Shown in pieces: positions 24,835-61,747 of a stretch of 64,000 nucleotides of DNA. The first letter of the stretch is position 1, and every line of letters starts with the position of its first letter. Position numbers and translations under genes: made by a program. Source of the stretch: an uncultured Fidelibacterota bacterium (GTDB lineage Bacteria; Fidelibacterota; Marinisomatia; Marinisomatales; UBA1611); assembly GCA_913040915.1 (NCBI GenBank), contig CAJWHW010000002.1:22129-86128 (forward strand). Direction: 5' to 3'. Under the pieces are notes generated by a model. That model ran no database searches. It saw nothing but the letters and a program-made list of their open reading frames with translations, and was not told the DNA's origin.

Positions 24835-25404
24835 TCAACATTTTATTGTTAAGAAGTTTTTTATTATTTGTAAACCATTCTCAGTTGCTATGGATTCAGG
24901 ATGAAATTGTAATCCATAGACTGGATCATTTTTGTGTTCTATGGCCATAATTAGGCCATTGTTTAATTCTGCTGTTATTATTAATTCTTTAGGGAGTAAT
25001 TTTTTGTCAGCTACTAATGAATGATAGCGAGTGGCCATAAAAGATCCTGAAAATCCTTTGAATAGAGCAGATCCATTATGTTGAATCTTTGCAGTCTTAC
25101 CATGAACAATCTCCGATGAATGAACTACTGTGCCACCATAAGCAATTGTAATTGCTTGATGGCCAAGACAGACTCCAAGTATAGGAATTTCTTTCCCATA
25201 TTTTTTAATAATATTTACAGAATGACCCGCATTTTCAGGCCTCCCGGGTCCAGGAGAGATGACAATATGAGTTGGATCCCAATGAACAATATCATCCAAT
25301 TCGAATTGATTATTTCGTATCACTTTCACATCTGGATTAAGAACACCGATGTATTGTACCAGATTAAATGTGAAAGAGTCGTAATTATCAATAACTAAGA
25401 TCAT
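24835..25404 (-). CDS. trpG: anthranilate synthase component II (glutamine amidotransferase)
   Basis: 189 aa. It contains MILVIDNYDSFTFNLVQY, GVCLGHQ and LQFHPES. Confidence 0.93.
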   Translation of the reverse strand: MILVIDNYDSFTFNLVQYIGVLNPDVKVIRNNQFELDDIVHWDPTHIVISPGPGRPENAGHSVNIIKKYGKEIPILGVCLGHQAITIAYGGTVVHSSEIVHGKTAKIQHNGSALFKGFSGSFMATRYHSLVADKKLLPKELIITAELNNGLIMAIEHKNDPVYGLQFHPESIATENGLQIIKNFLTIKC

Positions 25405-26885
25405 GCTGCTAATCCATCCTCTGCGAAGTCAATTGCTGACATGATAGCCTTGGCCTTACTTACCGTTTCCTCAAATTCTTTGGTGGGGTCTGAATCATAG
25501 ACAATGCCTGCACCGGACTGAAAATGGACGGATCCATTTTTCATAATCATAGTCCTTATAGCTATACAAGTATTTACATTGCCGGTAAAATCAAAAAACC
25601 CGACAGCACCTGAATAAATATTTCGTCGTTCAGGTTCTAGATCTTTGATTATTTCCATAGCTCGAATTTTGGGAGCACCTGTAACCGTACCAGCAGGGAA
25701 ACCACTCATAAGCGCATCAAATGGATCTTTATGTTCGGCAAGCTTTCCTTTTACATCAGAAACAATATGCATAACGTGGGAATAATTTTCGATTACCATA
25801 TTCTCGGGAATGGTAATTGACCCAAATTCTGAGACACGGCCCACGTCATTTCTGCCCAGATCTAAAAGCATAAGGTGTTCTGCTCTTTCCTTTTCATCAT
25901 TTAATAGTTCGTGCGCTAATTTTTTATCTTCATCAACTGAGTCCCCACGTTTACGCGTGCCTGCAATAGGGCGGATTTCCACATTGCCATCTTCTACTTT
26001 TACTAAGAGTTCAGGTGATGCACCAATAATATCAAAATCATTAATCTTTAAATGGAACATATATGGTGATGGATTAATGTTTCTCAAAGCTCGGTAAAGG
26101 GTTGTAGCCTCTACATCGGTGGCCCTTTCGAACCGCTGACTGAGAACCAGTTGAAAAATATCACCGTTGACAATATACTCTTTAGCTTTAGCCACTGCTT
26201 TCTCAAATTTATTTTGATCAAAATTTGAAATTACTTTACTTTTTTTTACTTGTATTGGCGTCTGATAATCCACATTAGTATGTAGTGATTCGCCAATTAT
26301 ATCTATCTTTGAATGTGCTTTATTAAATTGGAATTCCAAATCTGCTGAATCATCAATATTAACATTTGAGATTACTAATGCAGACCCTTTTAAGTGATCG
26401 AAAGCAATTATGTTTTCAAATAACATAAAGACTGAATCAGGTATATTTAATGCTGAATCTGTGTGAATTGGAATATCTTCGAACCAGGTGATAGTCTCAT
26501 AGCCAAGGTAACCAACTAGTCCACCGGTAAAAGATGGAATCCCGGGAAACTTCATCATTTTATATTGAGATTGAATATCGCGAAGTAAATCTAAAAATGG
26601 TGTTTCCACTTTATTTTTGTTACCATTTTTATAGATAATTGTTTGTCCATTTTTGTGTGTCAATATTTGTTTTGGATTAATTCCTACATAAGAATATCTG
26701 GTATATTGATTCCCTTTTTCTACAGATTCTAGTATGAAAGCATATTTAGCCTTTTGAGATAAATGTATCCATGCTGCCACGGGCGTAAGAAGATCTGCCA
26801 GGATACGTTTATATACAGGTATAGTTCGGTTCCCTTGGGAAACCAAATCTTGAAATTCTTTGTAGGTCAGTTGAGTTTTATCCAT
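25401..26885 (-). CDS. trpE: anthranilate synthase component I
   Basis: It contains LADLLTPVAAW, PSPYMF and GAVGFFDF-GN. I prefer the ATG at 26885 (MDKTQL). The ORF-track TTG at 26894 lies inside the terminator T-tract. Confidence 0.95.
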   Translation of the reverse strand: MDKTQLTYKEFQDLVSQGNRTIPVYKRILADLLTPVAAWIHLSQKAKYAFILESVEKGNQYTRYSYVGINPKQILTHKNGQTIIYKNGNKNKVETPFLDLLRDIQSQYKMMKFPGIPSFTGGLVGYLGYETITWFEDIPIHTDSALNIPDSVFMLFENIIAFDHLKGSALVISNVNIDDSADLEFQFNKAHSKIDIIGESLHTNVDYQTPIQVKKSKVISNFDQNKFEKAVAKAKEYIVNGDIFQLVLSQRFERATDVEATTLYRALRNINPSPYMFHLKINDFDIIGASPELLVKVEDGNVEIRPIAGTRKRGDSVDEDKKLAHELLNDEKERAEHLMLLDLGRNDVGRVSEFGSITIPENMVIENYSHVMHIVSDVKGKLAEHKDPFDALMSGFPAGTVTGAPKIRAMEIIKDLEPERRNIYSGAVGFFDFTGNVNTCIAIRTMIMKNGSVHFQSGAGIVYDSDPTKEFEETVSKAKAIMSAIDFAEDGLAA

Positions 26886-26892
26886 TTTGCGC

Positions 26893-26921
26893 AAAAAAAA
26901 ACCCCGATCATTGCCGGGGTT
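26893..26921 (-). terminator. intrinsic terminator of the aromatic (trp-type) attenuator, 7 nt upstream of the trpE ATG
   Basis: The minus-strand RNA reads AACCCCGG-CAAUGA-UCGGGG followed by U9 (plus-strand A-run 26893-26901). The stem has five G-C pairs and one G-U pair, and the two flanking A residues can pair with the first two U residues. Confidence 0.8.
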
Positions 26922-30792: not shown

Positions 30793-31888
30793 GGATATAT
30801 CCTTTTTGAACAAGTAGTTCTGCCATAAGAATGGCACCACCAGCGGCACCTCGAACTGTATTGTGCGACAATCCAATAAATCGAATATTAAAAAACATAT
30901 CCTCTGTTATTCGCCCAACTGTTACAGTCATGCCATTTCCCAAATCTCGATCTAATTTAGGTTGGGGACGATCTATTTCATCCAAAACAATAATAGGAAT
31001 TTTTGGGGCTGATGGGAAATGCATAGCTTGTGGTTCTCCTATAAATGAAGATAAAATTAATTTGAACTCATCTATAGTAGGGGCAATATCAACAAATCCA
31101 ATATGTACTACAGCAGTATGTCCATCTATTACTGGTACACGTGTACATACTGCATTTATAGCTAATCCCTTGAATTGCTCAATACCGCTTTCCGTTACTT
31201 CACCAAATATTTTTAATGGTTCTTTTTCTGTCTTTTCTTCTTCTCCACCAATATAGGGTACAACATTATCTTTTAAATCTGGATTGGTTAATGCTTTATA
31301 GCCAGCACCTGACAATGCTTGAAGGGTGGTCACTTGTACGCGATCCACCGGAAACCCTGCTTGTTTTAATGCTTCTAAAACAATAATATATGATTGAATT
31401 GAACAATTAGGTTTAACTGCTACAAAACCAGAGTTTGGTAAATTTCGAATCATCTGTTGGATAGGAATCACCTCTGCATGATGAGGATTTATTTCAGGAA
31501 TGATCATAGGTACATCACGGGTTTGACGATTAGCAGAACTAGTGGAAATAACAGCGTATCCTTTTTTTGCATACCCAAATTCAAAATCACGTGTATCCTG
31601 TTTTTTTTGTAAGTCTAACGCAGAAAATACACAGACTACATCCTCAGGTATTGATTCAAAATCATTCACATCCCGAACAATCAAGTTAGCAATTGAATCA
31701 GGAATCTGTGTATCTATAGCCCATTTCTCACTAGTTGCTTCCCTGTAAGTTTTTCCGGAAGAATGCTTGGATGCAGCAACGTCTATAACGTCAAACCATG
31801 GGTGGTTTTCCAATAATTTTAAGAAGTTTTGACCGACCATTCCAGTAGCACCTAAAACACTTACTTTAATATTTTTTTTTAGTAACAT
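30782..31888 (-). CDS. asd: aspartate-semialdehyde dehydrogenase
   Basis: 368 aa. It contains VLGATGMVGQ and the active-site region KPNCSIQ. It overlaps the thrA stop by 10 nt. Confidence 0.9.
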   Translation of the reverse strand: MLLKKNIKVSVLGATGMVGQNFLKLLENHPWFDVIDVAASKHSSGKTYREATSEKWAIDTQIPDSIANLIVRDVNDFESIPEDVVCVFSALDLQKKQDTRDFEFGYAKKGYAVISTSSANRQTRDVPMIIPEINPHHAEVIPIQQMIRNLPNSGFVAVKPNCSIQSYIIVLEALKQAGFPVDRVQVTTLQALSGAGYKALTNPDLKDNVVPYIGGEEEKTEKEPLKIFGEVTESGIEQFKGLAINAVCTRVPVIDGHTAVVHIGFVDIAPTIDEFKLILSSFIGEPQAMHFPSAPKIPIIVLDEIDRPQPKLDRDLGNGMTVTVGRITEDMFFNIRFIGLSHNTVRGAAGGAILMAELLVQKGYIHVQ

Positions 31889-34263
31889 TTTAAAATATCT
31901 CCTAATACACCAGCAGCAGTGACTTCAGCTCCGGCACCATGTCCTTTTATAACCATGGGGGTATCTTTATATCTTTTAGTCGTAAACATAATAAAGTTTT
32001 CACGTCCATTTTGATGATAAAAAGGGTTTTTAATTCCCACTGCTTTCAATTTCACTGTTACATTTTGCCCATCCCAGGTGGCAATATATCGTAACGCCTT
32101 ATCCTCTCTAGAAGCTGAAATATACATGTTTAAAAATTGGTCATCATATTTGGATAATTGCTCTAAAAACTCATCAATGGAAAATGCCGGATCCATATTT
32201 TCTGGAATTAAGCTTTGAATAGATACATCATCAAACTCTAATTGTGCACCAGTCTCTCGGGCCAAAATGAGAATTTTTCTTCCCACATCCACACCATTCA
32301 AGTCATCTCTTGGGTCTGGTTCTGTGTACCCGTTTTCCTGTGCATATTTTACCAACTTACTAAATGCAATTGAACCATCAAATCGACTGAATAAATAGCT
32401 TAGCGTCCCAGACATAATTCCTTCAATTTTTTCAACTGTATCACCTGTTGCCAATAAAGTTTGTAATGTTTCAACAATAGGGAGACCTGCGCCAACATTT
32501 GTTTCATATTTAAATTGAGAACCGGCAGCATTTGAATTTTCACGAATTAAATCATAATAATTCTGATTCATGGAATTGGCCAGTTTGCTAGCAGATACAA
32601 CAGAAATTCCTTTTTTTAAAATGTTTGCTATTTTTTTTGCGATTATAGGTGATGATGTTACATCCACAAATACGGGGTTAAGAGACTGAGCTGCATAAGA
32701 AATAAATGATTCTAAATCGACTGTATCACCACTTGCTAATTCTTCTACATAATTTTGGGAATCTAATCCATTTGGATTAATAATCATTTTTTGACTATTT
32801 ATTATACCGCATATATTTATGGAATTATTATCCTGAATTAACTTTATTAAATCTGAGCCAACCAACCCAACCCCAGCAATAAATACATTTATAATAGCAT
32901 TGTTTGAAAAAATATATTGATGCAAAGATCGAATGGCTGATTTGACTTCATCATTTTTAATAATAAAGGATATATTTCTTTCCGAAGATCCTTGAGCAAT
33001 AGCAACCACATTCACATTTTTTTCTCCAAGAACGGAAAATAGTTTCCCGGAAATTCCAGGTGTATGGCGCATCCCCTCGCCTACAACAGCAATGAGAGAA
33101 AGATCATTTTCAATATTAATAGTATCTATAAAATGGTTTTTCAGTTCAAACAAAAATTCTTTCTTCAAAAGTGATTCAGCTAGATCAACTTCTTTAGGTT
33201 GGATAGCAAAACAAATGGAATGCTCGCTAAACACTTGAGATACAAGAATAATATTTATTTTCTTTTTGGCTAGTGCATCAAATACACGTCCAATAACTCC
33301 AAAACGTCCCACCATACCGGCTCCTTGGAATCGGATTAAGGAAACATTATACAAAGATGAGATACCCACGGCAAAATGGTCATCCCTTGCACGGTCCTGT
33401 GTAATAGCCGTTCCTGGATTATCCGGTTCAAATGTATTTTTAATACGGATCGGAATAGATTTATATAAAGCAGGAATCATAGTGGGTGGGAAAATAACTT
33501 TTGCCCCGGCATGAGCCAATTCCATGGCTTCTTCATAAGTAATATGAGAAATGGTTTTTGCATCAAAAACCACATTGGGATCGGCAGACAAAATACCGTT
33601 TACATCAGTCCAGATTTCTATTTCATTTACATCTAAAGCAGCGCCAAAAATGGATGCGGTATAGTCTGAACCGCTCCTTCCAAAAGTTGTTGTTTCTCCT
33701 AATTCAGTGGCACCAATGAATCCAGTAATTATCCTTGTTTTTGATTCATCTTTCCATTCATTACGAATATTATTGTAAGATTTTTGATAATGAACAAATG
33801 CATTTCCGAAATGATCATCTGTTAAAATAACCTTTCGCGCATCCAAATATGTTGCATTTATTCCTTTTTCGATACATACTTCCGTAATAATTATTGCAGA
33901 TAATTGCTCACCAATACTTAGTGCTGCATCTTTTAATTGCAGTGTACATTTTTTCTTTTTGGCAATTGTACTTAATATAAGACATAATTCATTTTCTATT
34001 TCTTGGATAGTATTAAACAATAGTTCTTTTTCAAGATGAAGATCATGAATAGTTTTCCGATGCCTATCAAAAAACAATTGTAAATCATTATTATAATCAG
34101 CGTCCCGTTCTGCACATGAGATTAATTGAATGAGTTGATCCGTAATGCCACCAAACGCAGATACAACTACACCACATGGATGTTCAGATGAAATAAGCTG
34201 CACCACTTGCTCAATTCGTTGGGACGTTTTTACGGATGATCCGCCAAATTTGAGAATTTTCAT
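31879..34263 (-). CDS. thrA: bifunctional aspartokinase / homoserine dehydrogenase
   Basis: 794 aa. The N-terminus MKILKFGGSSV is an amino-acid kinase. Central ACT-like repeats are followed by a C-terminal homoserine dehydrogenase (GAGLPIVETL, TEPDPRDDLNG-DV). Confidence 0.93.
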   Translation of the reverse strand: MKILKFGGSSVKTSQRIEQVVQLISSEHPCGVVVSAFGGITDQLIQLISCAERDADYNNDLQLFFDRHRKTIHDLHLEKELLFNTIQEIENELCLILSTIAKKKKCTLQLKDAALSIGEQLSAIIITEVCIEKGINATYLDARKVILTDDHFGNAFVHYQKSYNNIRNEWKDESKTRIITGFIGATELGETTTFGRSGSDYTASIFGAALDVNEIEIWTDVNGILSADPNVVFDAKTISHITYEEAMELAHAGAKVIFPPTMIPALYKSIPIRIKNTFEPDNPGTAITQDRARDDHFAVGISSLYNVSLIRFQGAGMVGRFGVIGRVFDALAKKKINIILVSQVFSEHSICFAIQPKEVDLAESLLKKEFLFELKNHFIDTINIENDLSLIAVVGEGMRHTPGISGKLFSVLGEKNVNVVAIAQGSSERNISFIIKNDEVKSAIRSLHQYIFSNNAIINVFIAGVGLVGSDLIKLIQDNNSINICGIINSQKMIINPNGLDSQNYVEELASGDTVDLESFISYAAQSLNPVFVDVTSSPIIAKKIANILKKGISVVSASKLANSMNQNYYDLIRENSNAAGSQFKYETNVGAGLPIVETLQTLLATGDTVEKIEGIMSGTLSYLFSRFDGSIAFSKLVKYAQENGYTEPDPRDDLNGVDVGRKILILARETGAQLEFDDVSIQSLIPENMDPAFSIDEFLEQLSKYDDQFLNMYISASREDKALRYIATWDGQNVTVKLKAVGIKNPFYHQNGRENFIMFTTKRYKDTPMVIKGHGAGAEVTAAGVLGDILKCY

Positions 34264-34517: not shown

Positions 34518-34657
34518 AGATATTTTTCCTTATTTTGTGTTATTTATTGGTTTGTTACTAATATTTATGAATTAGTTATTCATAATAAATACAAAACGTA
34601 ATTGATAGCTTGTTGGGATAATATGTTAGAGGGCAAGAGACATTACAGCAGTATCTG

Positions 34658-34770
34658 TCTTATCAGTCTTCTAAAAAACTCGAAGCAGGAATTAGCACCT
34701 TGAACCGCATTGTACGGAGATGGTTGCTAAGGTATCTTAGGGCCTGATCCCTCCACCTTTCTGGATAAAA
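34658..34770 (-). promoter_or_regulatory. SAM-I (S-box) riboswitch
   Basis: The minus strand reads UUUUAUCCAGAAAGGUGGAGGGAUCAGGCCCUAAGAUACCUUAGCAACCAUCUCCGUACAAUGCGGUUCAAGGUGCUAAUUCCUGCUUCGAGUUUUUUAGAAGACUGAUAAGA. It matches the S-box core elements AUC-AGA-GG-GGAGGGA--GGCCC--GA--CC--GCAACC...AAGGUGCUAAUUCC-GC...GAUAAG. The P1 halves UUAUC(C)AG and CUGAUAA pair with each other. Confidence 0.85.
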
Positions 34771-34964
34771 TCCGGTACTGATCTGTCAAAAAGCATAAAA
34801 AACTTCTTTTAAATGTTAAATATGAAAATAAAATAATGCAAGATAACATTAATATATTTAACTATACTCCATCATTTTCTATAATTTTTTTATAAATAAA
34901 AGGAATATGATTTATATTTGAATGTTGCCCTTTATAAGAATTTGTTATAAACTTTTAGCCAATT

Positions 34965-35131: not shown

Positions 35132-36721
35132 ATGTGTGGCATATTTTTATATAAAGGTAGAAAACAAGATTGGAATTCATTGGAACCTGATATTAAACGG
35201 ATTGGTTATCGCGGCCCAGATAATACACACCATGAAATGATTGGCAATGATATATTATTAGCTTTCCATCGATTAGCTATCATGGGCACAAGTGAAATGG
35301 GCGATCAACCGATGAAACATCCCAATGATGCTTCGCTCACTCTGATCTGTAATGGTGAAATTTATAATTATAAAAATTTAGCTAAAAAATATAGCTTTAA
35401 TTTGAAGACAGGCTCTGATTGTGAAATTATTTTATTCATGTTTAAACAATTTGGTATTCAAAGAACTGTAAAGGAATTAGATGGCGTTTTCATGTTCGTA
35501 TTATATGAAGCAAATACTGGTCTACTTTTTGCTGGCCGGGATCCCATGGGTGTTCGTCCGGGGTTTATCGGTCGAAATGGAGATGAGATTATGATTGCAT
35601 CAGAAGCAAAATCCATGGTGAATCATTCTTCAAGTATTATTCCATTTCCCCCAGGGCATTGGTGGTGTTCGAACCTTTCAGATATATTCAATCCTTATTT
35701 TCTTTATAATAAAATCAAAATTCAAGAAAACACCGAAGAAGATATTTGTAATAAAATCCAGTTATTATTAACAGCTGCAGTTAAGAAACGGCTTATGACA
35801 GAACGTGATATTGGGTGTTTATTATCTGGTGGTTTGGATTCGAGTTTAATTTGTGCTCTTGTGAATAAGTATTATGAAGGACCAAAACTAAATACATTTT
35901 CTATTGGACTTGTAGGGAGCATTGACCTTGAATATGCACAAGATGTGTCCTCTCATTTGAAATCAAAACACCACCAGATAGAAGTATCTCAAAATGAGTT
36001 TTTAGATGCAATTGAAACTGTGATTTATAATATTGAATCTTATGATACTACTACAGTCAGAGCCAGTGTAGGCAATTACCTCGTTTCAAAATATATTTCA
36101 GATAATTCTGATTGCAAGGTGATTTTTAACGGTGATGGCAGTGATGAGGTATGTTGTGGATATGTATATTTAAGGAATGCACCATCACCAGTTGATTTGC
36201 AAAAAGAAAATGAAAGGCTGGTTGAAGAGATTCATTATTTTGATGTGCTGCGCTCAGACCGCAGTATTAGTTCTAATGGTTTGGAAGCACGGACGCCTTT
36301 TTTGGATAAAACATTTGTGAAGTATTATTTATCAATTCCTGCGGAATTAAAGTTATTTGATGGGGCACAAAGATTAGAAAAATATTTATTAAGAAAAGCT
36401 TTTGATGATCAGGGACTTTTACCAGATAAAGTTTTATGGCGTCGGAAATGTGCTTTTTCAGATGGTGTAAGTTCGCAGAATAATTCCTGGCATCATATTA
36501 TCCAATCATTTGTAGACCAAAAAATTAGTGATGAAGAATTTCAGCGAGAAAGCACTAAGATCACACATTGCACTCCTCAATTAAAAGAGAGTTATTACTA
36601 TCGTAAAGTATTCAATAGCTTCTTTGAGAATCATGAGAATTTAATTCCTCATTTCTGGATGCCTAAGTGGTCCAATACGATAGACCCTTCAGCTAGAGAA
36701 TTAAGTGGGTACAAAGAATAA
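35132..36721 (+). CDS. asnB: asparagine synthetase (glutamine-hydrolysing)
   Basis: 529 aa. The N-terminal nucleophile MCGI is present, with the PP-loop LLSGGLDSS. An SD, AAAGGA, lies 7 nt upstream. Confidence 0.93.
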   Translation: MCGIFLYKGRKQDWNSLEPDIKRIGYRGPDNTHHEMIGNDILLAFHRLAIMGTSEMGDQPMKHPNDASLTLICNGEIYNYKNLAKKYSFNLKTGSDCEIILFMFKQFGIQRTVKELDGVFMFVLYEANTGLLFAGRDPMGVRPGFIGRNGDEIMIASEAKSMVNHSSSIIPFPPGHWWCSNLSDIFNPYFLYNKIKIQENTEEDICNKIQLLLTAAVKKRLMTERDIGCLLSGGLDSSLICALVNKYYEGPKLNTFSIGLVGSIDLEYAQDVSSHLKSKHHQIEVSQNEFLDAIETVIYNIESYDTTTVRASVGNYLVSKYISDNSDCKVIFNGDGSDEVCCGYVYLRNAPSPVDLQKENERLVEEIHYFDVLRSDRSISSNGLEARTPFLDKTFVKYYLSIPAELKLFDGAQRLEKYLLRKAFDDQGLLPDKVLWRRKCAFSDGVSSQNNSWHHIIQSFVDQKISDEEFQRESTKITHCTPQLKESYYYRKVFNSFFENHENLIPHFWMPKWSNTIDPSARELSGYKE

Positions 36722-36816
36722 ATTATTTAATTATATTAATAATAAAATAAAATATATTTATTATTTGTTAAATTAAATTAAATGAATAATATTATAGACA
36801 GGAAATAATTAAAATA

Positions 36817-36984
36817 ATGTACGATACTGCAATAAATAAAATTAGCATTACGGGGATGAAGCCAATTGGGCTTTGTGACCGCGAAATTCTATGCCAAATG
36901 GTTACTATATTGCAATCCATTATTCGGTACCTAAGTATATCAATTTTGGTACTTATTATTACCTTCGCCGTTTTGATCGCCTAG
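36817..36984 (+). CDS. Ile/Leu/Val-rich short ORF upstream of ilvB (candidate ilv leader peptide or small membrane peptide)
   Basis: 55 codons, below the ORF-track cut-off: MYDTAINKISITGMKPIGLCDREILCQMVTILQSIIRYLSISILVLIITFAVLIA. From the internal ATG at 36898 it gives a 28-aa peptide with 16 Ile/Leu/Val residues, including ISILVLII. No downstream intrinsic terminator was found. Confidence 0.3.
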   Translation: MYDTAINKISITGMKPIGLCDREILCQMVTILQSIIRYLSISILVLIITFAVLIA

Positions 36985-37217
36985 TTAAAACAAATACATT
37001 CAGGTGATTCAAACGGTGAAAAAACTCTCCCCGATTAATTAGTCCATCCCTGAAGTATCTAATCTGGCAATTCGAACTGGTAAAATAGTTTGCGTAGTAT
37101 TTATTGTTGCGTTGAAAAAGGGACTTGATGAGTTTAGATCAAATAAAGTAGGATTTGAACATGCGTCCCACAGAAGCCCTTTGCGGGCTGCGAGCACAGT
37201 ATTAAAGTAGTGGAGAC

Positions 37218-38945
37218 ATGAAAATGGAAAAACGAACTCTAACAGGAGCAGAAATTATTTGGGAATGTGTGACTAAAGAAGATGTGGGTGTGGTTTTTGG
37301 ATATCCAGGAGGTGCAATCCTACCGGCATATGATGCTTTGAATAATTATCGGGATAAAATTCACCATGTGTTAGTGCGCCATGAACAGGGCGCGACACAT
37401 ATGGCTGATGGGTATGCACGTGCTAGTGGAAATGTGGGGGTAGCTATAGCGACATCAGGACCAGGAGCAACCAATATGGTCACAGGTTTGGCTACTGCAA
37501 AATTAGATTCTGTCCCCATTGTATGTATTACAGGTCAAGTTCCCCGGACTGCCATTGGATCAGATGCGTTTCAAGAAGTAGATATTTATGGTACAGTTTT
37601 TCCGGTGACAAAACATAGTTATTTAGTTATGGATATAAAAGACTTGGCCCCAACTATTAAGGAAGCATTTGCAGTGGCACGTTCCGGTAGGCCTGGTCCG
37701 GTTCTGATTGATATCCCTAAAGATATCCAAACTGAAACAATAGAATTTATTTATCCCAGTGAGCCTGTGAGATTGCCGGGAAATAATAAACTACAAATCT
37801 CCACTGAAAAACAAATTAACGATGCAATCAACTTAATAAATAATGCAAAAAAACCAGTTATTCTTGCAGGACATGGTATTCTTCTATCTGGCGCTTCTCG
37901 AGAAGTGATAAAATTGGCAGAAACTGCATCAATTCCCATTGGCTGGACTTTATTGGGTTCAGGAAGTGTCCCTGCCAGCCACCCACTGAATATGGGTATG
38001 ATGGGCATGCATGGCGAATTTGCAGTGAATAATGCGATCCAAGATGCGGATCTATTAATTGCCTGTGGAATGCGTTTTGATGATCGTGTTACAGGTAATG
38101 TAAAAACCTATTCACCCAATTCAAAAAAAATTCACATTGAAATTGATCCATCAGAAATCAATAAGAATGTCCCTGCCGATGTAGGTATTGCCGGAGATCT
38201 ACGAACTATTTTACTTCAACTTCTTCCGTTGGTAAAACAACGGAAAAATGAAGACTGGCTTAAAATAATTTCTTCTTGGCAATCTGAATCTATGGAAAGA
38301 GATATCATCAATGTCCAAACAGATACCCTCTACGGGGCCCAAGTGATTCGTGATATCTGGAAAGAGACCAGGGGTGATGCGCTTATTGTAACAGATGTAG
38401 GCCAGCACCAAATGCTTGAAGCACAGTATTATGCTCATGAAGAGCCCAACACATTATTAACCTCTGGTGGTTTGGGGACGATGGGTTTCAGTTTACCGGC
38501 GGCAATAGGTGCTAGTTTCACAAATAGAAATAAAGATATTTGGGTTATTGTCGGAGATGGTAGTATCCAGATGACAATTACTGAATTGGCTACTGCAGTA
38601 CAAGAGAATGCTAATATAAAAATTGCCATAATTAATAATGGTTACTTGGGCATGGTTCGTCAGTGGCAGCAGCTATTTTATGATGCCCGTTATGCTGAAA
38701 CACCCATTAGTAGCCCCGATTATTTAAAGATTTCAGAGGCGTATGGTCTGCCAGGCCATAGGGTACAAACCCGTGCTGAGATTCCTAATGTAATTAATAT
38801 GGCAAAAAAAAATGAAGGCCCCGTCCTTATAGAGTTTGTAGTGGAGCAACATGATATGGTTTATCCTATGGTGCCAGCTGGCGCTGATTTGAATGCTATG
38901 ATCAACAGGCCGAAAAATAAGCAATTTCAAGAAATAGAAGAATAA
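37218..38945 (+). CDS. ilvB: acetolactate synthase (acetohydroxyacid synthase) large subunit
   Basis: 575 aa. It contains GAEIIWECV..VFGYPGGAILPAYDAL and the ThDP motif GDGSIQMTITELAT. An ATG at 37224 is an alternative start with better spacing from GGAG. Confidence 0.95.
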   Translation: MKMEKRTLTGAEIIWECVTKEDVGVVFGYPGGAILPAYDALNNYRDKIHHVLVRHEQGATHMADGYARASGNVGVAIATSGPGATNMVTGLATAKLDSVPIVCITGQVPRTAIGSDAFQEVDIYGTVFPVTKHSYLVMDIKDLAPTIKEAFAVARSGRPGPVLIDIPKDIQTETIEFIYPSEPVRLPGNNKLQISTEKQINDAINLINNAKKPVILAGHGILLSGASREVIKLAETASIPIGWTLLGSGSVPASHPLNMGMMGMHGEFAVNNAIQDADLLIACGMRFDDRVTGNVKTYSPNSKKIHIEIDPSEINKNVPADVGIAGDLRTILLQLLPLVKQRKNEDWLKIISSWQSESMERDIINVQTDTLYGAQVIRDIWKETRGDALIVTDVGQHQMLEAQYYAHEEPNTLLTSGGLGTMGFSLPAAIGASFTNRNKDIWVIVGDGSIQMTITELATAVQENANIKIAIINNGYLGMVRQWQQLFYDARYAETPISSPDYLKISEAYGLPGHRVQTRAEIPNVINMAKKNEGPVLIEFVVEQHDMVYPMVPAGADLNAMINRPKNKQFQEIEE

Positions 38946-54360: not shown

Positions 54361-55380
54361 ATTAATATTCCTATAAATATAGCACTTTTTGGATTTGGTC
54401 GTATTGGAAGAAATCTATTCCGATTAGCAAGTAAAGATCCCCGTTTTAACATAGTTGCTATTAGCGAACACAGTCATGTGGAAGCATTGCACTACCTGTT
54501 GGTTCGTGATTCCGTGCATGGCGCACTAGATGATAATGATATCCAGTTAGATGGAGACTCCTTCATTGTTCATGGGAAAAAAATACGTATTCTGCCAGGG
54601 AAAAAACCAGGAGAAGTTCCTTGGATTACGTTGGGCGTGGATGTCGTTGTTGATGCTACAGGTAAATATTTAAAACGTGATGAATTAAATAAACACATTA
54701 AAGCCGGAGCAAAACGTGTTATTGTTTCCCGTATGCCCGAAGATGAAATTGATCGAATTATTATTCATGGTGTAAATGAGGATACCATATCAAAATCAGA
54801 TAAAATTATTTCTGCTACATCCTCTACAACCCAGGTATTAGCTCTTATGTTGAAAATTCTCAATCAGCACTATTCTGTAAAGCGAGCAATGATGACTACC
54901 GTACATGCGTTTACATCGGATCAGCCTTTGGTGGACGCAATAGGACTGGATTTACGTAGATGCCGATCAGCAGTTAAAAATATTATTCCCAATACTACTT
55001 CTGCTCCGGAGATAGTTGAGAAATTGATGCCAGAATTCACTGGGAAAATTGATGGAATAGCATTCAATGTTCCAGTTCCAAATGGATCTTGTGTTGACTT
55101 GACTACAGAACTGGAATTGATGCCTACTGTAGATGAAATAAACCAGACATTGAAAGAAGAATCAGAAAATACATATAAAGGTATTATGGGCTACACAGAT
55201 GATCCTATTGTTTCCTGCGATGTAATTGGCCGTGATGAGACTATGGTTTTTGATGCTCAGGCTACCATGATTAACTCAAAATCCTTATTGAAAACAATTT
55301 GCTGGTATGATAATGGTTGGGGATTCTCAAAAAGAATTTTGGATACGATCGAACTTTATGCCAAGGAAAATATTCGCTAA
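54361..55380 (+). CDS. GAPDH-family paralog with catalytic Cys replaced by Ser and no canonical start codon (pseudoenzyme or decaying gene)
   Basis: The frame is open from 54358, after a TAG at 54355. It encodes INIPINIALFGFGRIGRNLF (Rossmann), but the first ATG/GTG/TTG is the GTG at 54478 used by the ORF track. The active-site region reads SATSSTTQVLA, versus SNASCTTNCLA in the downstream paralog. Other GAPDH motifs are intact (TVHAFTSDQ, WYDNGWGFS). Confidence 0.6.
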   Translation: MNIPINIALFGFGRIGRNLFRLASKDPRFNIVAISEHSHVEALHYLLVRDSVHGALDDNDIQLDGDSFIVHGKKIRILPGKKPGEVPWITLGVDVVVDATGKYLKRDELNKHIKAGAKRVIVSRMPEDEIDRIIIHGVNEDTISKSDKIISATSSTTQVLALMLKILNQHYSVKRAMMTTVHAFTSDQPLVDAIGLDLRRCRSAVKNIIPNTTSAPEIVEKLMPEFTGKIDGIAFNVPVPNGSCVDLTTELELMPTVDEINQTLKEESENTYKGIMGYTDDPIVSCDVIGRDETMVFDAQATMINSKSLLKTICWYDNGWGFSKRILDTIELYAKENIR

Positions 55381-56381
55381 TGAAAATTGCAATAAATGGA
55401 TTTGGAAGAATTGGAAGGTCTGTATTCAGAGTTCTTAATAATAATAAAGAAATTGAAATCGTAGCCATCAACGATATTTTCGATAAAGGTTCCCTCGTAT
55501 ATTTACTGAAATATGATACCGTCATGGGTCGGTTCCCTGGAGATGTCTCCTTAAATGGGGATCTGTTGATTACAGCTAATCAAAGGGTAAAATTATTGGC
55601 AGAACGAATTCCTAGGCAATTACCCTGGCATGAATTAGGAGTAGATATTGTTATAGAATCTACAGGAATATTCCGGCAAAGATCCCAATTGGAGGATCAC
55701 ATTTCTGCTGGAGCAAAAAGGGTAATTTTAACTGTTCCTGCGAAAGATGAAATTGATTATACTGTTGTATTGGGTGTAAATGATAATGGTTTAACAAAAA
55801 ATCATCGTATCGTATCCAATGCCAGTTGCACTACAAATTGTTTAGCACCTATGGCGAAAGTACTCCATGAAGCATTTGGAATTGAGTTAGGTATAATCAA
55901 TACGATTCATGCATATACCAATGACCAGCGTTTGGCTGATGTTCCTCATTCAGACTGGAGAAGGAGTCGTGCTGCGGCTGAAAATGTAATTCCTACAACA
56001 ACGGGTGCTGCACGTGCTGTGGGTAAAGTATTACCGGAGCTTAATGGTAAACTAGATGGAATAGCTATGCGAGTACCGGTTCCAGATGGCTCGGTCGTAG
56101 ATTTCAATGTACGTTTACAACATGAAGTCACAGTTGAAACAATTAATGATGCTGTACGATCGGCTGCAGATGATGGTCCCATTTCAAAAGTATTACAATA
56201 TTCTAATTTACCAGTTGTATCAACAGACATTATTGGGAATAAGTATTCTTCCATTTTTGATGCACCATTTACAAGGGTAATTAAGGGAAATTTTGTAAAA
56301 ACACTGAATTGGTATGATAATGAATGGGGATATGCCAGCAGAGTAGTGGATCTTATAGGATTGCTAGGAAAATTGATCTAA
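55380..56381 (+). CDS. gap: glyceraldehyde-3-phosphate dehydrogenase (type I)
   Basis: It contains MKIAINGFGRIGR, SNASCTTNCLAP, TIHAYTNDQ and WYDNEWGYS. The start overlaps the upstream stop (TAATG). The ORF-track start at 55317 is rejected. Confidence 0.93.
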   Translation: MKIAINGFGRIGRSVFRVLNNNKEIEIVAINDIFDKGSLVYLLKYDTVMGRFPGDVSLNGDLLITANQRVKLLAERIPRQLPWHELGVDIVIESTGIFRQRSQLEDHISAGAKRVILTVPAKDEIDYTVVLGVNDNGLTKNHRIVSNASCTTNCLAPMAKVLHEAFGIELGIINTIHAYTNDQRLADVPHSDWRRSRAAAENVIPTTTGAARAVGKVLPELNGKLDGIAMRVPVPDGSVVDFNVRLQHEVTVETINDAVRSAADDGPISKVLQYSNLPVVSTDIIGNKYSSIFDAPFTRVIKGNFVKTLNWYDNEWGYASRVVDLIGLLGKLI

Positions 56382-59574: not shown

Positions 59575-60585
59575 CTAACTACATGTGGTTTCAATTAATG
59601 CAGCACATACTTTATAGGGATCCATATTTGCAGAAGGTCTGCGATCTTCAAGATATCCATAACCATCATTAGCAGTACCCATAGGAATACGAATAGATGC
59701 TCCACGGTCACTTACACCATATCTAAATTCTTTGATAGAGCAAGTTTCATGTAATCCTGTGAGCCGTTCTTCATTATGAGCTCCATAAATAGCTATGTGT
59801 TGATCATGCTTTTTACCTAATGCATCACAGGCGGCTTCAATTACCTTTAAACCTCCTTCTGTTCGCATGGACTTAGTACTGAAATTGGTATGTGCACCGG
59901 CACCATTCCAATCTCCTTTAACCGGCTTGGGGTGTAATGTAGCGCTCACTCCATAATCTTCAGCAATCCGGTACAATAGCCAGCGGGATAGCCACAACTG
60001 ATCTGCAACATCAAGTGGTCCTAAAGGTCCTACTTGATATTCCCACTGCCCCGGCATGACTTCTGCATTGATTCCAGAAATTTCTAACCCAGCATCAATA
60101 CATAACTCTAAGTGATCCTCAACAATATCACGGCCATATACTTCATCTGCGCCAACTCCACAGTAAAAAGGGCCCTGTGGTGCAGGGTAACCACCTTCAG
60201 GCCAACCAAGAGGTACACGTCCCTGGAAAAAGGTATATTCCTGTTCTATACCAAACCAAGGCTCATGCTCAGCATATTTTTCAGTTACAACTCGTAAATG
60301 AGCTCGCGTATTTGATTCATGAATAGAACCATCTGCATTCATAACTTCACACATGACCAATAGATTCTCTCCTCCACGAATTGGATCCTGTATAAAGTAG
60401 ACTGGTTTCAGCATACAGTCACTATCTTCTCCTGCAGCCTGCATGGTGCTTGATCCATCAAAACCCCAGTCTGGCAAATCAGAAAGAGAATTTACTTTCC
60501 CAGAAATTATTTTAGTTTTGGATCTGAGTTTCTGGGTTGGTTCATGCCCATCCATCCATATATATTCAACTTTTACTTTACTCAA
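59575..60585 (-). CDS. glnII: glutamine synthetase, type II (GSII, eukaryote-like)
   Basis: 336 aa. The N-terminus is SKVKVEYIWMDGHEPTQKLRSKTK. It uses a TTG start with AAGGAG 8 nt upstream, and lies 33 nt downstream of the Lrp-family gene. Confidence 0.9.
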   Translation of the reverse strand: MSKVKVEYIWMDGHEPTQKLRSKTKIISGKVNSLSDLPDWGFDGSSTMQAAGEDSDCMLKPVYFIQDPIRGGENLLVMCEVMNADGSIHESNTRAHLRVVTEKYAEHEPWFGIEQEYTFFQGRVPLGWPEGGYPAPQGPFYCGVGADEVYGRDIVEDHLELCIDAGLEISGINAEVMPGQWEYQVGPLGPLDVADQLWLSRWLLYRIAEDYGVSATLHPKPVKGDWNGAGAHTNFSTKSMRTEGGLKVIEAACDALGKKHDQHIAIYGAHNEERLTGLHETCSIKEFRYGVSDRGASIRIPMGTANDGYGYLEDRRPSANMDPYKVCAALIETTCS

Positions 60586-60618: not shown

Positions 60619-61086
60619 TTAATTAAAAACGGGAATATTCTGTATCAATTTATATGATGATAGAATTAACTGTGTTTCTGTACGTATGACTCCGGGCCAA
60701 CTTTGAATATTACGTAATAGTTCTTCAAGGCTATGGGAATTCCGAGTTACCACTAAAAGACTATGAGATCCATTCCCTGTTGTACTGAAGCACTGAATTA
60801 CTTCTGGTGTTTTTTCGACAGATTGTATGAATTTTTTGTAATGAATTGACGATTCAGATATAACAGTAATAAGGGCGGATACATCCAAATTTAGCTTTTT
60901 AGGATCCAAAACAGCATGGATACCCTGAATAATACCTGAATCCTGCAATTTTTTTATTCGTTCTGTAACAGTGGGAATTGAAATATTTAATTTATCTGCT
61001 ATATGACTTGCAGCAATACGACCATCTTCCTGCAGTAATTCTAAAATTTTCCGATCTATATTATCTATTTTCATTAAGTAATTCAA
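60619..61086 (-). CDS. Lrp/AsnC family transcriptional regulator
   Basis: 155 aa (TTG start in the ORF track; alternative ATG at 61074). It has the HTH ILELLQEDGRIAASHIADKLNISIPTVTERIKKL and a C-terminal RAM/AsnC_trans_reg domain. Confidence 0.88.
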   Translation of the reverse strand: MNYLMKIDNIDRKILELLQEDGRIAASHIADKLNISIPTVTERIKKLQDSGIIQGIHAVLDPKKLNLDVSALITVISESSIHYKKFIQSVEKTPEVIQCFSTTGNGSHSLLVVTRNSHSLEELLRNIQSWPGVIRTETQLILSSYKLIQNIPVFN

Positions 61087-61291: not shown

Positions 61292-61747
61292 TTATGATTT
61301 TATAGGCAATTTTTGTCGGATGTTATATTTTGATAATATGACTTGGGTTTCTGTACGTGTAACATTTGGCCAACTCTGTATATTTCGTAATAATTCTTCA
61401 AGTGTTTTTGAGTTTTCCGTTGCCACCCATAGCATTAGTGATCCTAACCCGGTAGTACTGAAACATTGAATTATTTCGGGGGTCTTTTTGGCGTTTTCAA
61501 TAACTTTTTTATAGTTTGTTGATGATGATGAAATTACCGTTATCATAGCTGTCACATCCAGCCCTACTGATCTAGGATCAATTACTGCCTGAAAGGCTTG
61601 AATAACAGATCCTTCCTGCAGTTTGCGTATTCTTTCTGTGATTGTAGGGACAGTTAAATTTAATTCTTTAGCAATTTCGCTAGCTGTTTTTCGACCATCT
61701 TCCTGTAAGCTTATCAGAATCTGACGATCAATACGATCAATTTTCAT
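61292..61747 (-). CDS. Lrp/AsnC family transcriptional regulator (tandem paralog)
   Basis: 151 aa. MKIDRIDRQILISLQEDGRKTASEIAKELNLTVPTITERIRKL is present. It shares EELLRNIQSWP and QCFSTTG with the neighbouring paralog. Confidence 0.88.
   Translation of the reverse strand: MKIDRIDRQILISLQEDGRKTASEIAKELNLTVPTITERIRKLQEGSVIQAFQAVIDPRSVGLDVTAMITVISSSSTNYKKVIENAKKTPEIIQCFSTTGLGSLMLWVATENSKTLEELLRNIQSWPNVTRTETQVILSKYNIRQKLPIKS

Follow-up and report, generated by a model that had tools for sequence, protein, structure and literature searches.

Our knowledge of leader-peptide attenuation, whose textbook form needs an intrinsic terminator, comes almost wholly from Proteobacteria, Firmicutes and Actinobacteria. 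In the classical attenuators of branched-chain amino-acid operons, a leader open reading frame (ORF) of 14-32 codons overlaps with its end segment 1 of two mutually exclusive RNA pairings, 1:2 and 2:3. Such an ORF, carrying codons for Ile, Leu and Val, stands directly before the operon in ilvL-ilvGMEDA and ivbL-ilvBN of Escherichia coli as well as in the ilvB leaders of Corynebacterium, Mycobacterium and Streptomyces. Both traits recur in the leader treated here, which lies upstream of an ilvBNC-leuBACD-cimA operon in a stretch of 64,000 nucleotides (nt) of contig CAJWHW010000002.1 (hereafter the window, to which all coordinates refer). The operon, which serves branched-chain amino-acid synthesis, and its leader come from a Marinimicrobia (SAR406) bacterium; the best identity of the encoded IlvB, 86%, is to proteins of metagenome-assembled genomes of Candidatus Neomarinimicrobiota. 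The Marinimicrobia leader departs from the classical attenuators in that its ORF mostly has 44-55 codons, that it possesses no 3:4 terminator hairpin with a U-tract, that its segment 4 complements segment 1 and not segment 3, which gives a nested alternative fold, and that it shows no sequence similarity to the leader peptide models or the Rfam leaders. The actinobacterial ilvB leaders, for their part, have terminators (PMC1262725).

Closer in the proposed mechanism are the Salmonella leaders mgtA/mgtL and corA/corL, and more distantly tnaC and speFL, where the speed on the upstream ORF (uORF) picks the fold. In mgtA/mgtL and corA/corL, the conformation of the leader, and with it the masking or unmasking of a Rho site, depends on translation of the uORF, one fold exposing a C-rich stretch with no intrinsic terminator involved (PMC12360218). 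The Marinimicrobia leader differs from these in the proposed signal, which is the charging of Ile, Leu and Val tRNAs and not Mg2+/proline or an exit-tunnel ligand, and it belongs to another phylum, shares no sequence relationship with them and has a Rho step that is a proposal. The terminator-less, Cys-codon-rich leaders of Mycobacterium, for which Rho-dependent attenuation has been proposed by elimination, likewise combine a codon-rich peptide with the lack of a recognisable terminator (PMC1262725); they had no conserved helices, whereas the Marinimicrobia leader has three covarying pairings. Tentatively, and with doubt prevailing, we suggest that Marinimicrobia may possess an undescribed class of amino-acid attenuator, in which a uORF of about 50 codons with an Ile/Leu/Val run is combined with a bistable leader that lacks an intrinsic terminator, is read out by Rho or in an undescribed way and would still work after deletion of the first gene.

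The leader is conserved far beyond the window. A nucleotide search with positions 36722-37217 returned matches upstream of ilvD in relatives that extend over the first ~70 nt of ilvD; the whole query was matched by the loci L037 (E=5e-48) and L023 (E=2e-38), and about 20 more loci matched from ~36920 onward. An ORF with an Ile/Leu/Val-rich tail (ending, for example, in LLILVIIGLAVQIA or ILVLIITIAVLVA) was found 108-146 nt ahead of ilvD in 24 genome loci, while a degenerate DNA pattern for the element led to 45 metagenome loci, all of which carry the ORF and, wherever enough downstream DNA is present (42/42), have ilvD as the next gene. The element thus always precedes ilvD (24 genome loci and the 42 of 45 readable metagenome loci) or, in the window, the stump of this gene. 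Profile search gave one copy per locus and no second copy in the window or in the relatives' loci, the reverse-strand matches corresponding to the palindromic hairpin P1 described below.

Related leaders from Marinimicrobia number 63 (50 distinct), and homologous ORFs end at the same position in every one of them, with the conserved peptide ending ...L(I/V)L(V/I)IIG(L)AV... and with the codons AUU-AUU (36955-36960) invariant in all relatives (alignments A1 and A2). Three GC-rich relatives have ORFs of 53-77 codons, two from GTG/TTG starts. An earlier note on this DNA, made from its letters alone, had described the 55-codon ORF with its peptide, followed by a gap of 233 nt up to ATG 37218, and direct reading bears out both; the Ile/Leu/Val-rich end, whose conservation the note wished to see checked, is kept upstream of the operon in every relative found. 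The 28-residue tail starting from ATG 36898 does hold the 16 Ile, Leu and Val residues counted there, but this ATG is not conserved, and the conserved start is ATG 36817, aligned with the starts in L037 and L023. Gene callers left the leader ORF uncalled in the six assemblies examined, and an exact-sequence look-up of the 55-residue product found no called gene. Five leader peptides searched against Pfam and NCBIfam at E<=10 gave no relevant match, the known ilv leader peptide models included. At gathering thresholds, Rfam recognised over the whole window a SAM riboswitch only and nothing in the leader region, and in permissive mode the best hits over 36600-37400 were at chance level (LOOT, E=2.3; CrcZ, E=6). 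The Marinimicrobia element is absent from the Rfam, Pfam and NCBIfam libraries.

How the ORF varies is informative about what is conserved in it. In the N-terminal two thirds, compared within four groups of close relatives, variable codons that change the amino acid stand against those with synonymous changes only at 16 vs 4, 7 vs 4, 6 vs 7 and 16 vs 8, and the variable sites are spread across all three codon positions, while the last 20 codons are nearly unchanged among close relatives. By these counts, the N-terminal two thirds of the peptide appear to evolve almost neutrally, the peptide as such being barely constrained. In L031, L039, L081, L108 and L114 the stop codon comes three codons early; the nucleotides that follow are kept and pair in P1. 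This is the pattern that would be expected of a leader peptide, in which the act of translation counts and the constraint on the 3' end is that of an RNA, and it is unlike that of a functional membrane peptide. With the conserved ORF, its Ile/Leu/Val-rich end and a covarying hairpin, the view of an ilv-type leader peptide without classical terminator read-out is upheld, and the leader is with good probability a ribosome-sensed leader-peptide switch.

The hairpin, P1, corresponds to the pairing 1:2. Segment 1 takes in the final six sense codons of the ORF together with the first base of its stop (TAG 36982-36984), and positions 36965-36972 pair with 37012-37019 and 36977-36982 with 37002-37007. 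RNAalifold finds 14 pairs, 7/14 of them compensated; in an independent alignment of 26 sequences, 97.8% of the cells are paired and 7 pairs have changed on both sides, a value reached by 0/500 shuffles, with slid controls at 23-64% paired. A helix between CCGUUUUGA and UCAAACGG had already been noticed from the single sequence; it is real and forms part of the longer covarying P1, although its 3' strand is at 37009-37016, some 8 nt upstream of the ~37017-37024 given at the time. Of the three helices proposed then this is the genuine one, the two others being remnant coding sequence of ilvD.

Segment 2 has an alternative partner in segment 3. In the window UUCAGG (36999-37004) can pair with CCUGAA (37049-37054) and, in the inner part, CGGUGA (37014-37019) with CUCUCCCCG (37025-37033); in relatives UUCAGG, GGUAGG, AACAGG or GACAGG face CCUGAA, CCUACC, CCUGUU or CCUGUC, respectively, ~45 nt downstream, and the helix encloses a small hairpin of the form CGG.GAG...CUC.CCG. 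Folded without segment 1, 20/21 sequences give this same 2:3 fold. The duplex with the own partner is more stable (-9.3 kcal/mol) than with the partners of other sequences (-6.9 kcal/mol; permutation p<1e-4). On alignment A2, 77% of the 2:3 cells are paired with 18 double-change cells, which 0/500 shuffles reach, and the covariation score is 0.302 compared with 0.141 in shuffles (0/500 reach it). P1 and 2:3 share columns 57-59 of A2 (window 37002-37004) and hence are mutually exclusive.

A third, long-range pairing joins the whole of segment 1 to segment 4, located 25-45 nt before the ilvD AUG in relatives, with CCAAAUCG:CGAUUUGG in one case against CAAGUC:GGCUUG in another. Over the family, segment 1 binds its own segment 4 with a mean of -18.5 kcal/mol and those of other sequences with -15.9 kcal/mol (permutation p<2e-4). 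The leader can consequently adopt two folds, either P1 with segments 3 and 4 free, or the nested arrangement with 2:3 inside 1:4, and in the relatives the ensemble energies of the two are near equal (-45.5 vs -44.7 kcal/mol), P1 being the more stable in 26/49. Covariation or own-partner tests in the aligned sequences support P1, 2:3 and 1:4 and, with them, a putatively bistable leader. Reading the window by itself had captured the 1:2 helix of this switch and missed the pairings 2:3 and 1:4 as well as the deletion of ilvD.

This deletion is the chief surprise in the window. In all Marinimicrobia relatives inspected ilvD stops 4-26 nt ahead of ilvB, and it is the ancestral first gene of the operon. 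In the window it is reduced to its first ~65 nt joined to its last ~6 codons (...TVLK and stop) by an internal deletion of ~1.6 kb. While IlvD of the relatives starts with MRSDxIKKGFEHAPHRSLLRATG... and ends with ...GAVLK, the stump reads MSLDQIK up to a stop and then, in another frame, KVGFEHASHRSPLRAASTVLK up to the next, with a 1-nt deletion (frameshift) and ~7 replacements at residues conserved in all or nearly all relatives; no other IlvD-like sequence was found in the window. Sixteen metagenome contigs carry an identical IlvB, and the six that were read, from six different samples, show an identical leader and no called ilvD between asnB and ilvB. As the same arrangement recurs in six samples, the deletion is not an assembly error; the six contigs are near-identical and offer no micro-variation to analyse. 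The gene upstream of the leader is asnB (36640-36721), which likewise precedes the leader in L001, L003, L004, L021, L034 and L041 (C-terminus ...IDPSARELQDYQE and stop), so that the synteny of asnB and leader is older than the loss of ilvD.

Of the structured leader of 230 nt that had been proposed, ~143 nt are true leader and the remaining ~90 nt a gene remnant, which the leader now has to cross to reach ilvB. The candidate helices GGGAC:GUCCC (GUCCC 37164-37168, in the codons for ...EHAPHRSLLRA) and AGCCC-UUUGC-GGGCU both lie inside the ilvD relic, in dead coding sequence, and are rejected as leader helices. As a separate observation, intact ilvD genes can form an inner hairpin over the His-Arg-Ser-Leu-Leu-Arg codons (nt 37-71, alignment A4; window 37164-37194) with 77% of cells paired. 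The codons for Arg-Ser-Leu-Leu-Arg force 4/6 of its pairs, and the remaining covariation (columns 15/30 hold CG, UA and UG in 13, 10 and 7 sequences, respectively) is confounded by third-position G+C. This ilvD 5' hairpin is mostly explained by the amino-acid sequence together with third-position G+C, selection on RNA structure being a residual possibility.

Taken together with the known systems, a model can be proposed in which a leader-peptide switch between 1:2 and 2:3(+1:4) is read out by Rho, which as a whole we regard as nearly balanced, leaning slightly towards doubt. The uORF would be translated, its Ile/Leu/Val-rich last third ending inside segment 1. When charged Ile, Leu or Val tRNA is scarce, the ribosome would be arrested on the Ile/Leu/Val codons and hide the base of segment 1. 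With segment 2 freed in this way, it would pair with segment 3, masking the C-rich stretch and permitting read-through, while the uncovered part of segment 1 would pair with segment 4 and lock the nested fold, so that 2:3(+1:4) would be the ON state, an order of events that makes physiological sense. With fast translation, or with none, P1 would form and segment 3 would stay single-stranded, presenting a loading site to Rho that would bring about premature termination before the first structural gene. We infer ribosome stalling, the assignment of the ON fold and the Rho read-out from modelled structures and by comparison.

The composition of segment 3 is consistent with such a site. The 45 nt after P1 contain on family average 14.7 C and 3.5 G, which places them within about the top 1% (median) when each sequence is ranked against its own locus; in the window, 13 C and 4 G are counted in the 45 nt that start at 37020 (top 2.9%). 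Segment 3 is unpaired to 0.69 in the P1 fold and to 0.48 in the nested fold. Arrived at by elimination, Rho-type premature termination through the exposed C-rich, G-poor patch is a possible read-out, about which doubt somewhat outweighs confidence. That the leader continues to matter in the window is suggested by the comparison with its neighbour: beside a frameshifted and substituted ilvD stump, the leader has kept its 168-nt reading frame open and has lost none of the 14 P1 pairs and nothing of the 6-bp 2:3 helix. This would point to a leader still under selection, with a read-out at the level of transcription that affects the operon as a whole.

Several observations weigh against the proposed mechanism. 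The shuffle and permutation controls leave the phylogenetic relatedness of the sequences in. RNAalifold, run both on segments 2-3 by themselves and on the entire sequence beyond the 5' arm, found no consensus helix; from one subgroup to another the rows of the MAFFT alignment are shifted by a column, and the loop closed by the 6-bp helix is large. Support for 2:3 therefore comes from the single-sequence folds, the own-versus-other duplex test and the A2 pair counts. In the window, the 1:4 duplex has only -12.4 kcal/mol, compared with -18 to -24 kcal/mol in most relatives, so that P1 is favoured over the nested fold by 8-10 kcal/mol; this copy, by the modelled energies, may switch poorly. Averaged over the whole region downstream of P1, predicted openness sets the two folds only slightly apart (0.56 vs 0.47), and their longest open runs are 18 vs 16 nt. 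The C-rich patch is only ~45 nt long, and its C-richness is partly a by-product of pairing with the G-rich segment 2. Finally, a modelled ribosome stalled exactly on AUU-AUU leaves the upper P1 stem intact in the window, which makes the geometry assumed for the switch a tentative one.

An unlikely alternative, though the one that fares best, is translational attenuation, in which the folds would gate the access of ribosomes to the start of the first gene, termination being absent or a secondary polarity effect; in the P1 fold the free segment 3 or 4 would pair with the ribosome-binding region. Openness of the ilvD start region is indeed predicted to rise from 0.46 with P1 to 0.62 in the nested fold, and a rise is seen in 36/49 leaders. 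Segment 4 ends in UCCAUU in many group-2 leaders, where this sequence is able to pair with AAUGGA or AAUGAGA before the ilvD AUG; a pairing of CCCU in segment 3 with the Shine-Dalgarno (SD) sequence AGGG is possible in L037 and in the window, and SD-like motifs occur in 21/46 genes vs a 13% background. However, start regions that were shuffled behave alike (opening of 0.126 +/- 0.026 compared with 0.147 for the natural ones), so that the opening is what follows in general once segments 3 and 4 are occupied and is no evidence of selection for sequestration of the start site, and masking by a stalled ribosome does not change the openness (0.52 vs 0.52). Sequestration of the start site beyond chance is on these two counts unsupported. 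Moreover, the start site that would be gated in the window belongs to a dead 7-codon ORF 67 nt before ilvB, yet leader ORF, P1 and 2:3 are intact.

Quite unlikely, too, is that the leader of the window is a decaying leftover which has lost its function since the deletion of ilvD. Such decay would account for the weak 1:4 pairing (-12.4 kcal/mol here vs -18 to -23 kcal/mol in the closest leaders), for the position of the nested fold 8-10 kcal/mol below P1 in stability, where in L037, L023, L094, L098 and L103 the difference is ~+/-5, and for the lack of the 5' hairpin that precedes the ORF in relatives. It is difficult to reconcile with an open 168-nt ORF, 14 P1 pairs and an intact 2:3 helix next to an 83-nt stump that has meanwhile collected a frameshift and ~7 replacements. 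Some changes in segment 1 are moreover matched in segment 4 (UUCUGG:CCGGAA in L037 vs UUUGA:UCGAA in the window), and the leader is identical in the six contigs read from six different samples.

It is improbable that the leader is a classical attenuator with an atypical intrinsic terminator, such as one with a weak stem or a broken U-tract or one assisted by a factor, which the scans have missed. The 1:2 / 2:3 logic is the same as in classical attenuators, and weak hairpins followed by U-rich stretches exist in a few relatives, as GGUCUGAUUGGACU-UUUUG in L032. Termination signals may also be unconventional in this genome, as canonical terminators in 40 kb of the window (20001-60000) are not above shuffles (13 vs 13.9 and 13 vs 11.5) and, apart from the trp attenuator, no strong terminator occurs there even at operon ends, which suggests that termination in this genome is mostly by other signals. 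On the other hand, a consensus scan of 36400-37500 listed no terminator-like site, and the region has, as reported before, no T-run of 5 or more, the 233-nt gap not even one of 4 or more. With loose criteria for a hairpin and U-rich tail, 33 of 49 leaders are without a candidate and those of the remaining ones are non-homologous and weaker than -10 kcal/mol. A 3:4 terminator hairpin was looked for and none was found, segment 3 having no such partner and segment 4 complementing segment 1, whereas the trp attenuator of the same window uses a textbook terminator with a perfect 8-bp stem followed by T9.

That trp attenuator (27024-26900, minus strand) has a leader ORF, MNYKNIENYYNWYWFFSLKGVT, with Trp-Tyr-Trp-Phe-Phe, followed by the terminator AACCCCGGCAATGATCGGGGTT + T9 with the arms AACCCCGG...CCGGGGTT; it directly precedes a 497-residue ORF (25401-26894), putatively trpE.

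Highly improbable, finally, is a small tail-anchored membrane peptide with a function of its own and incidental helices, an alternative raised by the earlier note, for although the ~20 residues at the C-terminus are hydrophobic and would suffice to cross a membrane and the conserved length of 44-55 codons exceeds that of typical leader peptides, the N-terminal two thirds vary nearly neutrally, with more amino-acid-changing than synonymous variation, one lineage loses three C-terminal residues yet keeps the nucleotides, the helices covary, the ORF is found solely directly upstream of ilvD or its stump, and Pfam and NCBIfam hold no match.

The leader-peptide switch with the proposed Rho read-out accordingly comprises the features whose coordinates are collected in the following table, together with those that flank them.

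Table. Coordinates of the leader of the Marinimicrobia ilvBNC-leuBACD-cimA operon and of adjoining features in the window
Feature	Position	Strand	Basis or remark
Putative promoter of the leader transcript	36764..36794	+	TTGTTA 36765-36770, 16-nt spacer, TAATAT 36787-36792; inferred
Leader ORF, 55 codons, MYDTAINKISITGMKPIGLCDREILCQMVTILQSIIRYLSISILVLIITFAVLIA and stop	36817..36984	+	Read from the sequence; homologous ORFs in relatives
Proposed regulatory codon run Ile-Leu-Val-Leu-Ile-Ile	36943..36960	+	Ends 4 nt before the base of P1
Segment 1, 5' arm of P1	36965..36982	+	RNAalifold, pair counts
Segment 2, 3' arm of P1 (37002-37007, 37012-37019)	36999..37019	+	Alternative pairing with segment 3
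Segment 3, C-rich and G-poor	37025..37054	+	Single-sequence folds, duplex test, pair counts
Segment 4, UGGCAAUUCGAACUGGUA	37065..37082	+	Second complement of segment 1 (long-range)
ilvD relic	37128..37210	+	nhmmer and tblastn homology to the 5' end of relatives' ilvD; 3' junction matches ilvD ends
ilvB	37218..38945	+	First intact gene of the ilvBNC-leuBACD-cimA operon; Pfam TPP domains

With respect to the flanks of the leader, the promoter of the table is assigned with low confidence from its sequence. It aligns with TTGACA...TACTAT of the closest leader relatives L037 and L023 and matches the consensus at 8/12 positions, and a simple consensus scan did not list it; that scan gave no promoter-like site on the plus strand between the leader ORF and ilvB either. 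Many relatives (L001, L003, L004, L016, L027, L030, L031, L032 and others) show in the 5' untranslated region a covarying hairpin ~10-45 nt before the leader ORF, for example GCUAUCC-AGCGA-UGGAUAGC, GUUAUCU-CUGUAC-AGAUAAC and UAUUAUUC-AACAA-AGAAUAAUA; L037 and L023 have a different hairpin at this position and the window (~36795-36816) has none.

Downstream of the leader the genes follow in the order ilvB, ilvN, ilvC, leuB, leuA, leuC, leuD and a second LeuA-like synthase of the cimA type. Pfam recognises the N, M and C domains of TPP enzymes in IlvB and the ACT and ALS small-subunit domains in IlvN. The true start of ilvB is probably ATG 37224 rather than ATG 37218, because GGAG (37212-37215) sits 8 nt before the former and the IlvB proteins of relatives align from query residue 3 onward.

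Elsewhere in the window, two adjacent genes of the Lrp/AsnC family (60619-61086 and 61292-61747, minus strand) lie ~14 kb past the end of the ilv-leu operon; Lrp-type proteins control branched-chain amino-acid genes in other bacteria. The SAM riboswitch (RF00162, 73.8 bits, 34657-34771, minus strand) is located upstream of a bifunctional aspartokinase / homoserine dehydrogenase gene (31879-34263). Two tandem overlapping GAPDH ORFs occupy 54478-55380 and 55317-56381, the first of which matches the NAD-binding profile from 37 to 100 only (the last two thirds) and could be a duplicate that has been truncated, the product of a frameshift, or an ORF whose start was mis-called. A glutamine-synthetase-like ORF of 336 residues with a TTG start (59575-60585, minus strand) matches only positions 5-156 of 344 of the catalytic profile, its first half, and may be a truncated gene or a pseudogene.

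As to what the leader means for these bacteria, an abundant uncultured lineage of the ocean carries a phylum-specific, strongly covarying switch in which the sensing half of the branched-chain attenuators, with its codon run and the competition of 1:2 and 2:3, is kept and the terminator is not. For annotation, the ~90 nt upstream of ilvB are to be regarded as a pseudogene remnant, and the population with the deletion either draws its dihydroxy-acid dehydratase activity from a gene located elsewhere or has to do without it. To our knowledge, amino-acid attenuation and attenuation by a uORF and Rho are known as separate cases; if the Rho read-out holds true, the two would be joined in one element, the RNA motif of which could be added to the annotation libraries. 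The ilvD stump represents a natural experiment, in that the leader has stayed intact while the original first gene decayed, and points to a control exerted on the whole transcript.

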